In this document: piece after piece, positions 19,484-62,691 of the stretch
How the letters are laid out: each line of letters begins with the position of its first letter
Position numbering within the stretch: position 1 is the stretch's first letter
Source: Octopus sinensis
Taxonomy: Eukaryota
Assembly (NCBI RefSeq): GCF_006345805.1
Contig: NC_043004.1
Location: forward strand, 48,236,001 to 48,300,000
Reading direction: 5' to 3'
Length of the DNA: 64,000 bases
Notes under the pieces: model-generated
What the model saw: only the letters and a program-made list of their open reading frames with translations
Told to the model about the DNA's origin: nothing
Database searches by the model: none
Translations under genes and position numbers: made by a program

Positions 19484-19553
19484 GCCAGATAACTGAAGAG
19501 ATAGCGGCGTGGATTTCCACCCCGGCATCCGAAACTCGGAGTTTTATCATGGC
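19484..19553 (+). ncRNA. Type I hammerhead ribozyme motif inside a fold-back cassette
   Basis: Stem I GAUAA/UUAUC, core CUGAAGA, 31-nt stem II hairpin, GAAA, stem III ACUC-G-GAGU, cleavage triplet GUU. Confidence 0.75.
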
Positions 19554-19622
19554 TACCGAATAATTGTCATATATTACATTTACAGATAAATTCCTCTATT
19601 TACATAACATCGAGGTCTCTTT

Positions 19623-22040
19623 CATAAAATCCACAAACCCAACAACCCTGGCCGCCCATTGTCTCCGCCTGTAACTGCCCCACGGAGCTCATCTCAAAAT
19701 ACCTCGACCGTGTCCTTGCCCCCCTAGTGGCGTCTCTTCCCTCCCACATCCATGACACCAACCATGCTCTCCGGCTTTTCAACTCTTTCTCCTTTCCTCC
19801 CGGCTCCTCCAAAATCCTTTTTACAATGGACATCCAGAGCCTCTATACCGTCATCTCTCACCATGAAGGACTGCGGGCACTTCAACACTTTCTCGACCTC
19901 CGCCCCAACCCCGAACACGACACCTCCACACTCATTCGTCTGGCCGAACTTGTCCTTTCTCTTAACTGCTTCTCGTTCGCGGGCGAGTTCTACCAACAGT
20001 TCTCGGGAGTGGCCATGGGAACGCAAATGGGCCCCAACTATGCGAACCTGTTCGTTGGCTATGCTGAGGCCCAAATATTCTCAAGTTTCACTGGTCCCGC
20101 TCCCGAACTATACGGTCGTTACATTGACGACATTATCGGTGCCACCTCACTCTCCCGTGAACATCTAGATTCCTTCCTCTCTTTCATTCAATCCTTCCAT
20201 CCTGCCCTCCACTTCACCTCCACTATCTCCAACACCTCTGTCTCTTTCCTCGACATTTCGGTCAGCATTCATCACTCCACTCTTACCACCTCCATTCACT
20301 ACAAACACACAGACTCACACTCATACCTAAACTTCTCTTCCTCCCACCCCAAACACACCAAGCTTTCCATCCCCTATTCCCAATTCCTCCGTCTATGTAG
20401 GCTCTGTAGTGACGACCATGACTTTGAGACTCAGTCTCAACTCATGGCTCTCCACTTCATCCTACGTGGATACCCCCTCACCACTATCCACACCGCCCTT
20501 GCCAGAGCACGTTCCTTAGACCGTGCATCTGCTCTCTCTCCTCCCCCCCCCGAACCCGCCTTGCAGTCTCCCGCCTCCCTTATCCCCTCACTTTCCACCC
20601 CACCACCCTACCTCTCCAACGCACCATTCTTCGAGTTTTCCGGCATCTCCAGTCCGACCCGTCCACTTCACACCTCTTCCCTAACCTCCCCCTCCCCTCC
20701 TTCAAACGAGCCCATAATCTACGAGACCTCTTGGTCCACAGCTTCTTCCCTGGCCCTACCTCCCAACCTGGCTCGTTCCCCTGCTCCCGCCCACGTTTCC
20801 ACACTTGCCCTTACCTCTCCAACACCACTCTCCTCACTGGCACCCATCATTGACCCTATTGCATCATCGACTCCTTCACCTGCACCTCCAGCAATATCAT
20901 CTATTGCATCTCCTGCTCTCTTTGCCATTCCCTGTACATCGGACAAACGGGACGCCGCTTGGCTAACCGGTTCGCGGAACACCTCCGAGACATCCGCCTT
21001 GCCAATGACACACCGGTCTCACGCCATTTCCGCTCCACCGGTCACTCCCTGCAACACCTGTCTGTGTTCGGATTGTCCTTGCACAGAGGCCATCCGGATT
21101 CCCGCTTGCGCCGTGAACAGGGATTAATCTTCTCTCTTCGCTCTTTTACGCCATTTGGTCTCAACTCTCCCCCACCTTTTCATCTAACCTCCCCCCAACT
21201 CCTACTTCACTTCAGTCCTTCATCTTTTCACCCCTACTCTCTTTCCCTCCTCTTCCCTTCTTTCCCTTCTTCCCTGTTCTTCTTTCTTCTTTTTTCTTCC
21301 CTCTTCCCCTTCTCTCTTTCTCTCTGCTCCCTCACTCCCCTTCTCTCCCCCTCCCCTCCTCTCCTCTCCCTCTCCCATCCTTTCCCCTCCCCATTCTCCT
21401 TCCTTCTCCTCTCCCTCCTCCTCTCCTCCCCTCATCTCCTCTCTCCCCTCCCCTCCTCCTCTCCTCTCTCTTCTCTCCCCCTCTCACTCTCCCCACAACC
21501 CCCACTCTATCCCAACCCCCAGCCGAACCCACACCCCACATGGGATTTCCCCACTCTCGCCCCCCACCTCCCCACAACATCACACCACACTACACTACAC
21601 CATACGACATTACACATCACATCATACATACACACGTCCAGACCACACGCACGTCCAGACCACCAGCCCTCTTTCACACGCACATACATACTCTCTTATA
21701 CACACACGCACCTTCATGTTGGGGCGAGATCACTTGACCCTGTTATCTCCCATACTATCCCTCTAGCATCTAACGTCTGAACTCTGACGTCTGACCTCTG
21801 ATCTCTGACTTCTGCCTGAAATCAGAACGCCATGTTGGACCGTTAGCTCCTACACGCATTTTTTTCTCTCCTTGTTTCTCTCCTTGTTTCTTCTCTGTGT
21901 ATCTTTCTGTCGAAGAGCGTAGGCTCGAAACGTAAAAGACTTGTTTTATTTATATTCCTGAGCGCCATACTAATGCAATTGTTTGTTTGTACTCCACCTG
22001 CCTTCGTCTTTTGTTTATTTTCGTAAACCTTCCCGTTATA
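19623..22040 (+). mobile_element. Penelope-like retroelement (Neptune-like), 5'-truncated and disabled: RT, GIY-YIG and 3' pLTR
   Basis: KIHKPNNPGRP, TMDIQSLYT, GVAMGTQMGPNYAN, YGRYIDD and FLDI motifs. After a frameshift at the poly-C (~20545) comes a Cys-rich linker with an in-frame TGA, then NIIYCISCSLCHSLYIGQTGRRLANRFAEH...PFGLN. A hammerhead-like motif lies in the 3' region. Confidence 0.93.
21902..21939 (+). ncRNA. Minimal hammerhead-like motif in the PLE pLTR (variant core CUGUCGA)
   Basis: Stem I UCUUU/AAAGA, stem II GAGC-GUAG-GCUC, GAAA, palindromic stem III ACGU, triplet GUA. Confidence 0.65.
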
Positions 22041-22315
22041 TATATATATATACATATGTATGTTATATATAATATGTAATATATATATATATATATATAT
22101 ATATATATATATATATATATTATATATATATTATATATATATATATATATATATATATATATATATATATATATATATATGTGTATATGTATATATATAT
22201 ATATATATATATATATATATATAAAATATTATTAGAGACAAAACCACTATTTTGCAAACAAAACAAGGAAAGACTTAATCAAAACATAAATTTTAATAAA
22301 TAGTCAAAAAAACCG

Positions 22316-22358
22316 CCACTACAATTGTTTCTTGTCTTGATCGACAATCTTCAGGTGG
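22316..22358 (-). ncRNA. Type I hammerhead ribozyme with canonical core
   Basis: Minus strand reads CCAC-CUGAAGA-UUGUC(gaucaa)GACAA-GAAA-CAAUUG-UA-GUGG. Stem III is the palindrome ACAAUUGU. Confidence 0.85.
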
Positions 22359-60583: not shown

Positions 60584-60606
60584 AATAATAGTAATAATAA
60601 TAATAA

Positions 60607-61853
60607 TTCATTCTTTTATTGTCCACAAGGGCTAATATAAAGATATATTAAAGGACATGAAACAAACATAAACGACAACACAAGACGATACAATGGATTT
60701 TCAAATCATGTACAGTAAATAACATGAAAATTAAACAAAAACAATATCCCAATAGGGGGAGGCGCTTTAAGGTCCTCGTAGAAAAACCCACAAAATCCAC
60801 GGGTGCCTGATCAACAGGGAAAGAGCCCTTCCTTCATTTCTTCACGAGTGTACGCTCAGAATCGATCCTTTCACACTGATAATTCTTCAAACATTCACCC
60901 ACCTTTTAATAAACTTGCTACAAGACAACACTTCCTTCTCCACCCTCAACTTCCTTTGTAAGTGTAACTTGAAAAAGTCGATGAGGGCTTGGCCAAAGAG
61001 GAAAGTGTCTGACTTTAGCCCTTTCAAACGAGTCCACCATACTACCTCTTTCGCTACAGCCACCAGACAAATAAAAATTGCCTGCCCCTCCTGGCCAAAG
61101 GAGGGCAGCGGGGCAATCTTCACTGGGGATTCAGCTGATTGCCGGATCCGTCCCACACGCGACAGCAGGTGTTCGACATAAACTCACAGGTCAGCAATGC
61201 TCGGGCACTGGACGAGTGCGTGCAGAACGGTTTCGTCGCTTTGCGCACACCTTGAGCAGGCCCGGCTGATGGCACTTCCGTGCCTGTAAAGCTTATCCGA
61301 AACGGACAACGTCCCTCGGTAGCACTGCCAGACAATGGATTTCTGGAAATTGTTCATAGGCCCAGGCCCGAAAGTTCTCCGAAAGAGACCGGCGTGTTTA
61401 TCTTCCTCGACGCCCAGAGTTTCCCCAAGAACGTCGTCGCACTTTCCCTCCACTAGCCCTCTATAGAACGCTAAAGTGAAATTACTACCGACTGCATTGC
61501 TCGCCTGGCGGAGGGCTGTGAGCGTTTGACGGCACTCTAGGTGCCAAGCGCCCTCCTCGGTCTACGCCTAATCCAGGTTTACAGCTCAGTCAAAGAGACG
61601 AGCTGTAGAAAAGTGAGTCGGACAAACAGCGACTACACCTGCTCACCGTAAAGGAAACGCTTGAGATGCTGTAGCTTGAGCGCATGTCTGCGCATCAGCA
61701 ACCACAGCATGTCCGGCCCTCCATTCAGCGGCTGTTGACAGCACATGGAGGCCCTGACCTGTAGAAGGCACCCCTTCCACAGAAAGCAGACGAGTAAGTG
61801 CACCAGCTTGGTCAACCAGCAAACGGTGCAAGCGGCAATAGATGACGGATGCG
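60607..61853 (-). mobile_element. Tx1/L1-like LINE 3' portion, 5'-truncated and decayed
   Basis: CQQPLNGG..M, WQCYRGTLSV and CSRCAQSDETVLHALVQC (zf-RVT-type). The 3' UTR ends in AATAAA plus (TTA)n. Confidence 0.8.
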
Positions 61854-62394
61854 AATAATAATATATACCCTGATGCTATACCAAGTACTGGCTCTCATGG
61901 CTTCTGATCTTAACTGAATGGAAGTGGTATCATATACATGTTTTGTCGTGGTGTAAAAGATAGGCTACAGCAAATGTTCTGCTCAATACCACAAATTTAC
62001 TTGTCAGTTGTTTGACTTTAACCAGTTGAGCATGTCCCTTGGTGGCTGAGGCTGATCACGAGCAGAAGTAGTGGGGGCGCATCGTAGTTATGTAATGAGA
62101 GGAATTCTTTGGGGCTTGAATAACTCACTTCTGTAAACATAGGCATTTTATTCATCATCTATAAATAAATCGTATTGAAGGACCTGTTGAGCGGAATGGG
62201 ATAGTCATGATGGGTATATTGGGCTTCGTATATTTGTACCCCAGTATCCTTTGATGGCATGCGCTGCTCTCTCACTCAACAACAGCAGCAGCAGCAGTAG
62301 CAGCAGCAGCAGCAGAAGCAGCAGCAGCAGCAGCAACAACAACAACAACAACAACAACAACAACAACAACAACAACAACAACAACAACAAAAGC

Positions 62395-62691
62395 AAAAGA
62401 ATACTAAATCGTGAAAATTCATATTTTAAAATATAATTATCAAATACGTCTTTAAAACGGTTTGAGAATTTGAATCGAATATACAGGCAACTACCCGTAC
62501 TTAAAGAGTTAATCGCGTATTTGAGGGAATAACAGATAATAGAAAACTTGAAGAACTTGCCGGTAATATACAAAAGAGATATTCAGAGAGCATAGAGTTT
62601 AGATACACGTGATATATTACTGCTGGTGAATGAAGTTAGAATCATAGAAAAAGAACTAAGTTTCTGGTGAGTCGTGAGACGAACTAAAATT
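62395..62691 (+). mobile_element. Decayed PLE 3' end with a degenerate hammerhead motif at 62659-62691
   Basis: ILNRENSYFK...LN resembles a GIY-YIG C-terminus. Motif reads AGUUU-CUGGUGA-GUC(GUGA)GAC-GAA-CUA-AAAUU. Confidence 0.45.

Follow-up and report, generated by a model that had tools for sequence, protein, structure and literature searches.

Type I hammerheads at the ends of Penelope-like elements and a putative permuted four-strand hammerhead in a non-coding tandem element of Octopus sinensis

Hammerhead motifs in the window

The window, i.e. the whole 64-kb stretch of O. sinensis DNA analyzed here, contains eight hammerhead-derived sites among the nine motifs which an initial annotation had called hammerheads. 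The ninth, at 62659..62691 on the plus strand, is a single-copy hammerhead-like motif with two core changes and is probably a chance occurrence or a very old remnant. Type I topology, claimed as common to all, was found at six sites, each located at the end of a high-copy repeat and each combining the core with three stems arranged as in type I and a palindromic stem III. The pair at 25158 and 26068 departs from it by the block order S-G-C (cleavage site, GAAA, CUGAnGA). A relaxed type I descriptor passes four of the window sites; 19484 and 48528 were assigned via family comparison. Against these four matches, 30 shuffles gave 0.0 on average. In a genome sample of 40 evenly spaced 10-kb stretches, nine descriptor matches in 399,900 bases correspond to 1.44 per 64 kb; with ~2.8 times the genome average, the window is thus not exceptional. 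An Rfam scan of the window yielded zero hammerhead families at E ≤ 1.

Adjacency of the motifs to (TA)n, also noted initially, is real, and they are hammerheads linked to Penelope-like elements (PLEs) at (TA)n. It is not specific, however, as the end of a control SINE adjoins (TA)n in 11 of 15 cases. Insertion into (TA)n has already been published for the PLE clades to which the traced families belong, and to find many hammerheads at (TA)n is established PLE biology. The half-motifs reported at 24445 and around 17.5 kb were confirmed as truncated copies, with intact family members carrying the full core. The region 17418..18745 holds an inverted PLE 3′ end of 173 bp in four copies with (TA)n between them; each has half a hammerhead, the truncation point lying inside loop II. 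At 24392..24458 on the minus strand, a further common PLE-like family is represented by the 3′ half of its type I hammerhead.

Penelope-like elements carrying type I hammerheads

Of the six type I families, four extend 5′ into PLE RT/GIY-YIG sequence and were traced to coding PLEs, one of Neptune type and three of Hydra type. These families are coding PLEs with long non-coding 3′ ends and their short copies therefore truncations, which contradicts the proposal of mostly non-autonomous mini-elements.

The element at 19398..19625 (plus strand) consists of a Hydra-type PLE 3′ piece and a short inverted 5′ piece, with the 3′ end fused to the following element. Its type I hammerhead (19484) has a canonical core at 19493-19499, GAAA at 19531, and a predicted cut after 19543. 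This copy fails the descriptor with a stem II mismatch, other family copies pass, and the family reaches PLE coding sequence in 16 of 30 loci. An RT located 6 kb upstream of another family copy was rejected as an unrelated insertion. The adjoining 5′-truncated Neptune-type PLE (19626..22036, plus strand) comprises RT from 19628, GIY-YIG at about 20854-21183, and a 3′ pLTR with the hammerhead at 21902; for this family, RT/GIY-YIG sequence thus lies directly 5′ within the window. The core CUGUCGA (21907-21913) bears the change A6U, stem III is ACGU, and the cut is predicted after 21934. The A6U pattern TGTCGAAG..CGAAACGT gave 4,173 matches versus 24 in the control. Among the matches listed (100), nearly all were from two families, a sister family has a normal A6, and in the 910-bp family described below this register is not the core, so that A6U as a selected variant lacks support.

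At 22225..22844 (minus strand), a Hydra-type PLE of ~6.4 kb is represented by its final 620 bp. Its canonical type I hammerhead (22316) has all stems, the core at 22354-22348, the palindrome ACAAUUGU, and a predicted cut at 22320. Elsewhere in the genome (locus L142), a coding family member measures ~6.4 kb, of which 3.7 kb form the non-coding 3′ end. Family translations contain KWKA, SDKT, and CTCRDKANC, corresponding to RWK-like, DKT, and CxCX5C motifs, as well as a GIY-YIG at the C terminus. Position 22844 was discarded as a fixed 5′ end, since other copies continue into the 3.7-kb UTR and the ORF. At 33981..34442 (minus strand), a Hydra-type PLE 3′ end with an inverted 5′ piece carries a type I hammerhead (34140) with a long loop II. 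The core (34238-34232) lies ~90 nt upstream of the motif behind a 75-nt stem II region, the cut is predicted at 34145, and the window copy has the core change G8A. PLE coding sequence was reached in one of 20 loci of this family.

For the remaining two families, no coding partner was found. The 3′ end of a PLE-like family at 48230..48855 (plus strand; 5′ limit approximate; 35 loci) contains a type I hammerhead (48528) with the core at 48533-48539, a 10-bp stem II with a ~80-nt loop, GAAA at 48637, and a weak stem I. The type I hammerhead at 59286 is located in a 60-bp PLE-like 3′-end remnant between (TA)n runs (59280..59340, minus strand; 45 loci), with the core at 59324-59318 bearing U4C and a predicted cut at 59295. 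Copies of the latter family were found via pattern search, while a search with 64 bp of DNA gave none. GIY-YIG remains beside this motif at one locus (L166) were not accepted as a coding partner, the junction being ambiguous and not common to other copies.

The tandem element at 24606..26351 and its putative permuted hammerhead

In the non-coding PLE-like element at 24606..26351 (plus strand), a ~910-bp unit occurs 1.9 times head to tail; (TA)n follows the element, and the tail of the unit lies at about 25445-25514. Units of this family are 0.8-0.9 kb long and carry one hammerhead each. Its ends are of PLE type (tail, inverted 5′ pieces, (TA)n), and the same tail-to-body junction occurs in tandem units of subfamilies whose identity to the window unit is 69-89%. 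The arrays observed comprise under two units. A 3′-end fragment of the family without the ribozyme is located at 63389..63514 (minus strand). No contiguous PLE protein was found at 92 family matches, the queries being pieces of RT from the O. sinensis genome (Neptune, Hydra, and others), a set that did not include Naiad proteins. A non-coding head-to-tail element is demonstrated for this family only. Contigs from four sequencing runs (three guessed to be RNA) cover parts of the unit, and no RNA ends were seen in them.

Copy 1 of the hammerhead (25148..25232, plus strand) comprises an upstream stem II strand at 25148-25152, U16.1 at 25175, a predicted cut after 25176, GAAA at 25192-25195, and CUGAAGA at 25221-25227. 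In copy 2 (26058..26142, plus strand), the respective positions are 26058-26062, 26085, 26086, 26102-26105, and 26131-26137. The non-circular S-G-C order was found in 47 of 47 diverged copies, and in all of them position 17 and G12 are 14-16 nt apart, A15.1 and C3 24-26 nt. Diverged copies do not keep the type I register at 25158, whose stems have 2-3 bp. Genome-wide, the S-G-C pattern gave 2,761 matches and a reversed control 15; in a scan of 120 metagenome loci, the S-G-C descriptor was matched once and weakly, which was attributed to chance.

The search pattern required CUGAnGA, GAAA, and the near GAAG, so that their conservation is not independent evidence. In the 47 copies, the named structure was paired to 86.4% (79.8% in shuffled sequences) with 91 double changes versus 31.8, and none of 500 shuffles matched this score. 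Double changes affected five of the seven pairs of stem I and five of the six pairs of stem III, the latter also being recovered by RNAalifold unaided. U16.1 is present in 46 of the 47 copies, position 17 is C in 32, A in 11, U in three, and G in one, and position 7 is variable. A position 17 avoiding G, a free position 7, and A15.1-U16.1 kept amid varying stems form the pattern that would be expected under selection on catalysis. With 42 rows, the pairings of stems I and III, of distal III, and of the upstream stem II strand had better duplex energies than 1,000 of 1,000 row swaps, a test that overstates significance because the copies are related. In a fixed register, distal III was not significant (0.69 vs 0.67). 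The single-strand fold was no better than shuffles (z 0.18) under a model that does not include pseudoknots, and among 3,403 four-pair helices no covarying one joining stems I and II stood out.

Stem II of this hammerhead is most likely completed by the upstream strand, which scores better than the downstream one, where pairing is possible yet weak and not covarying. This strand, GAAGG, is present in 31 of 42 rows, and its gain in pairing energy is small (−5.11 vs −4.83 kcal/mol). CCUUC may instead pair with core G8-A9 (−6.1 kcal/mol), which would be inactive. The near GAAG was rejected as stem II strand, showing no covariation and lying too close to stem III, and by eye the internal loop of the family did not match a canonical kink-turn. 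In the supplement of PMC8557442, the 3′ ends of Naiad_Ovul and Naiad_Obim by eye arrange their four strands in the same order, differ in stem sequence, and carry at the equivalent place a kink-turn that looks canonical; two further sequences there have this order, too. Naiad_Ovul was flagged as HHR_half_core in this source.

A classic type-SGC hammerhead, in which stem II would use the GGGG immediately following A9 together with one additional A, and the upstream strand would be a mere competing fold, would agree with G10.1-C11.1 in 45 of 47 copies, with an additional nucleotide as is typical for hammerheads of PLEs (PMC4209133), and with the short stem I-stem II linker of HRIMA-1 (PMC10085705). 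We consider it rather unlikely: the downstream stem II has 4 bp including two G-U pairs (−2.5 kcal/mol), double changes occurred in none of its four pairs, all 1,000 row swaps scored better (42 rows), and in the Naiad ends of PMC8557442 solely the upstream strand pairs well. Similarly unlikely is a motif descended from a hammerhead, now non-cleaving or very slow, and kept as a binding signal for PLE protein, although the strong competing pairings, the poor cleavage of PLE hammerheads in vitro (PMC4209133), and a PLE inserted in vitro without hammerhead cleavage (described in the accessible part of PMC11167929) are in its favor. Also, 5′ ends of copies show no pile-up at the predicted cut (0/98 within 3 nt, in a sample biased towards long copies). 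The nucleotide preferences at positions 17, 7, and 15.1-16.1 argue against it.

The initial reading of nine type I hammerheads, all in non-autonomous mini-elements, is very improbable. It draws on the two families without coding partner (48528 and 59286) and on the non-coding 910-bp family, and is contradicted for five of seven families. Four families run into PLE ORFs, the type I register of 25158 is unconserved with its very short stems, and 62659 is single-copy.

In our judgment, the window probably holds six type I PLE 3′ ends and, at 25158/26068, a non-coding tandem element whose S-G-C motif is likely a self-cleaving four-strand ribozyme. In this four-strand fold, upstream GAAGG would pair with CCUUC before GAAA as stem II, thereby opening the usual A9-G10.1 link. 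Stem III would continue via a purine-rich 4×4 internal loop into a distal helix; this helix would have to fold over to bring its ends to the tips of stems I and II, and CUGAnGA would dock as the last strand. The ribozyme could cut read-through or tandem transcripts to unit-length RNA, which would be copied in trans into (TA)n by the reverse transcriptase/endonuclease of a PLE, most probably a Naiad. Chances are about even that this order (stem II strand first, then cleavage site, GAAA, and CUGAnGA; open A9-G10.1, folded-back stem III) represents a seventh hammerhead wiring in nature, active in animals and overlooked as the Naiad ribozyme, which would drive a family of non-autonomous RNAs of ~0.9 kb, possibly circular and present in thousands of copies.

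Compared with the finding of many hammerheads at (TA)n, the permuted pair carries greater weight. Non-circular hammerhead permutations previously came from environmental sequence alone, with each block assumed to be whole; a genomic, high-copy, covarying case with a likely open A9-G10.1 link would widen the allowed topologies. The permuted fold would also account for standard descriptors and Rfam missing such motifs, and for Naiads being called devoid of canonical hammerheads. Natural compensatory variants provide ready constructs to ask whether cleavage matters for PLE mobility.

Comparison with known systems

With the minimal type I hammerheads of PLEs, the six window motifs share the short palindromic stem III, the extra nucleotide after A9, high family diversity, and mostly truncated copies. 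They differ by the family-fixed core changes U4C and A6U, the latter with about 4,000 pattern matches that come mostly from its family, and, in two families, by a 60-80-nt loop II. The 25158 pair falls outside this type. Hydra-clade PLEs (Craig et al. 2021, PMC8557442) share with the Hydra-type elements of the window the RWK-like and DKT motifs, the CxCX5C linker, the C-terminal GIY-YIG, the canonical hammerhead, and (TA)n insertion; the assignment is motif-based. The element at L142, at about 6.4 kb with its 3.7-kb non-coding 3′ end, exceeds the generally <3 kb given in the accessible part of that paper.

Like the 910-bp family, non-LTR retrozymes consist of non-coding head-to-tail units with one hammerhead each, and they are thought to be PLE-derived (PMC7229834; bioRxiv 10.64898/2026.07.22.740005, as far as the accessible parts of these sources go). 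Their units measure 170-400 nt versus 0.8-0.9 kb here, and the hammerhead of the 910-bp family is not of type I; its arrays are under two units and known from assembled sequence. Naiad PLEs, described in the accessible part of PMC8557442 as lacking canonical hammerheads, share the (TA)n preference. The window element has no ORF, and its likeness to Naiads is architectural.

The four-strand form was not found in the literature searched, which mostly did not cover subscription journals. Its closest counterpart in block order, type-SGC (HRIMA-1 with its variants; Eckert et al. 2023, PMC10085705), shares the intact CUGAnGA and GAAA, the short stem I to stem II linker, and covarying stems I and III. 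The cleavage rates published for type-SGC range over 0.007-0.13 per min. In the accessible part of that paper, type-SGC examples come from metatranscriptomes only, and genomes of known organisms contribute one type-GCS candidate. A helix joining stems I and II, as in type-SGC, was not found in the O. sinensis family. A fourth, upstream strand likely completes its stem II, whereas an unbroken block C is assumed in the accessible part of PMC10085705, and in contrast to type-SGC the form is present in thousands of copies within an animal retroelement.

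Hammerhead motifs, their density and (TA)n adjacency

In the window, no hammerhead match to Rfam was found. A strict descriptor returned 22354 (−) as its one canonical site, with no match in any of 12 shuffles. With a relaxed descriptor allowing published features of Penelope-like elements (PLEs), i.e. a nucleotide added after A9, a single core change, and a long loop II, four sites were detected, against an average of 0.0 over 30 shuffles. Applied to a genome sample of 40 evenly spaced stretches (399,900 bases), the same descriptor gave nine matches, which puts the window density at ~2.8 times the average. 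Extrapolated from these nine matches, the 2.72-Gb host genome, rich in microsatellites and transposon pieces, may contain roughly 60,000 such motifs (Poisson range about 28,000–116,000).

The nine hammerheads of the initial annotation were partly confirmed: searches of the same genome placed large families behind seven of the eight distinct motifs, but the region at 62659 (+) yielded a single candidate, namely itself. For six motif families, 1,292, 2,482, 861, 3,323, 341, and 1,944 first-look candidates were obtained, which are not copy numbers; the 59286 (−) motif had 1,099 exact 28-mer matches in the genome vs. 0 for the control. The candidate at 10326 (+), CUGAAGA...GAAAACGU, was without stem I and relatives among the sampled loci and was taken as chance.

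Location of the motifs next to (TA)n held as an enrichment over random positions (4.3%), with 3′ ends at (TA)n in 18/29 (21902), 18/23 (25158), 19/24 (22316), 15/19 (19484), 5/19 (34140), 13/14 (48528), and 21/25 cases (59286), but 3′ ends of a control SINE behaved likewise (11/15). Insertion into (TA)n has been published for the Hydra, Neptune, and Naiad clades (for Hydra and Naiad in PMC8557442), and type I hammerheads at PLE ends with (TA)n are known biology (PMC4209133).

Coding elements and neighboring features

The interpretation as non-autonomous mini-elements was partly supported: the 25158/26068 unit is non-coding, but the 21902, 22316, 19484, and 34140 families reach coding PLEs. The 21902 (+) motif belongs to the 3′ pseudo-LTR (pLTR) of a truncated element whose RT and GIY-YIG also lie inside the window; from its cysteine linker, this element is probably Neptune-type. 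The 22316 (−) copy comprises the final 620 bp of an element present whole in another stretch (L142), in the order inverted pLTR, ORF, 3.7 kb non-coding 3′ end, hammerhead, and (TA)n. Its family protein carries the RWK-like, DKT, and CxCX5C hallmarks typical of Hydra-clade PLEs. The non-coding 3′ end (L142:3665–7375) has internal repeats and an inverted segment, and far exceeds the length described for this clade. Walking upstream, a similar endonuclease was reached in 16 of 30 loci of the 19484 (+) family and in 1 of 20 of the 34140 (−) family. Shared upstream DNA was non-coding for at least 0.85 kb in the 48528 (+) family (35 loci) and for about 0.3 kb in the 59286 family (45 loci). At 19625/19626, the 19484-family piece ends about 27 bp short of its usual 3′ end and abuts the RT of a different PLE, by either nested insertion or template switch.

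Several families (from stretches L089 and L233, and window 34140 and 48528) have loop II insertions of 60–80 nt and 8-nt palindromic stems III (ACAAUUGU, ACGCGCGU, ACAGCUGU, ACACGUGU); such motifs escape standard models.

Further features include a near-complete LINE at 5070–8283 (+) with zinc-finger ORF1, endonuclease, and RT, and a 646-codon intronless frame at 14817–16757 (−) with an ADAMTS cysteine-rich domain, either a metalloprotease-like gene or a retrocopy. A local duplication (16960–19396; about 17000–17370 again at about 18990–19360), which is either a recent event or an assembly artefact, surrounds a (TA)n run of 600 bp together with four inverted PLE ends of identical sequence. The spliced-looking coding fragment at 23459–24390 (+), ending at an inverted PLE fragment, had no match in Pfam and PDB; it presumably resembles a plexin-domain protein and is possibly a retrocopy. 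Elsewhere in the genome, a Polinton/Maverick-like element (L121:7351–9999 and L122:1–7131) with polymerase-like frame, A32 ATPase, and double jelly-roll capsid adjoins a Hydra-type PLE piece.

Block order and stem II of the 25158/26068 pair

The type I core initially assigned to the 25158 (+)/26068 (+) pair, two copies of a ~910-bp unit, is absent from older relatives found by similarity search, which keep CUGA(A/U)GA downstream of GAAA. The blocks are in the order predicted cleavage site, GAAA, CUGAnGA (S-G-C), that of the hammerheads of Eckert et al. In the genome, this pattern had 2,761 matches and its reversed control 15. Sampled loci supplied 64 distinct motifs, of which 50 differing at three or more positions were kept; three were dropped (a 5′-truncated copy, a copy carrying a deletion, and another whose block S contains a junction), and one row was swapped for the window copy (final n = 47). 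Stem III was 92% paired, compared with 81% across 2,000 row swaps, none of which exceeded 86%; for stem I, the values were 90% vs. 79% (maximum 86%). In an unfitted MAFFT alignment, whose last block is displaced by one column in eight rows, 91 double changes were counted for the named structure vs. 31.8 after shuffling. This count was reached by 0/500 shuffles, and the structure's number of pairs with double changes was reached by 26/500, such shuffle tests being inflated by kinship among copies. Slid versions fell to 43–52% paired, and RNAalifold recovered stem III unaided. Since the search pattern demands both core words, independent evidence comes only from the stems, U16.1 (46/47 copies), and position 17 (G in 1/47); position 7 is variable.

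In a classic SGC hammerhead, stem II of the pair would be formed by downstream GGGG. A duplex-energy test of 42 rows (five with the upstream part replaced by foreign DNA were left out) ranked this strand below each of 1,000 row swaps. An upstream GAAGG strand, a candidate for completing stem II, outperformed every swap, as did stem I, stem III, and distal stem III; the near GAAG came out neutral. The energy gained with GAAGG was small, and distal stem III lacked significance when tested in fixed register. CCUUC can also pair with G8-A9, which counts against an active fold. From hammerhead geometry, the short linkers would require that the long stem III fold back on itself at its GAAG/AGUA loop or that the ribozyme act between two units. 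Among 98 copies, a sample biased towards long ones, none had its 5′ end at the predicted cut.

The carrier unit is 0.8–0.9 kb long, has no notable ORF, and bears PLE marks, namely inverted 5′ pieces, an optional tail, and (TA)n flanks. At least six same-strand pairs 855–879 bp apart occurred among the first 100 S-G-C matches. In 9 of 12 stretches, eight of them selected for being dimers, a partial unit continues via the tail into another unit; these belong to subfamilies 69–89% identical to the window unit. None of 92 family matches had a contiguous PLE protein match, and one lay on the same strand within 4.5 kb at three loci.

Comparison with published S-G-C hammerheads and Naiad elements

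S-G-C order was validated in metatranscriptome RNAs by Eckert et al. (PMC10085705), who reported none from the genomes of known organisms except one GCS candidate. Our literature search, with subscription journals mostly missing, retrieved no description of a permuted hammerhead in a retrotransposon or animal genome. Going by this search, the putative permuted pair is new as a variant, and most other hammerhead findings in the window are ordinary. In the PMC8557442 supplement, the 3′ ends of Naiad_Ovul (flagged HHR_half_core by its authors) and Naiad_Obim show, by eye, a GGUGUC strand that precedes GAAA and pairs with GACACC, stem III AUGGU/ACCAU with a kink-turn-like motif within it, and stem I CUGCCC/GGGCAG followed by CUGAUGA. 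Two further sequences there share this order but use GGCUCC/GGAGCC and GGCCCC/GGGGCC; through these other stem II pairs, the four-strand order covaries between families.
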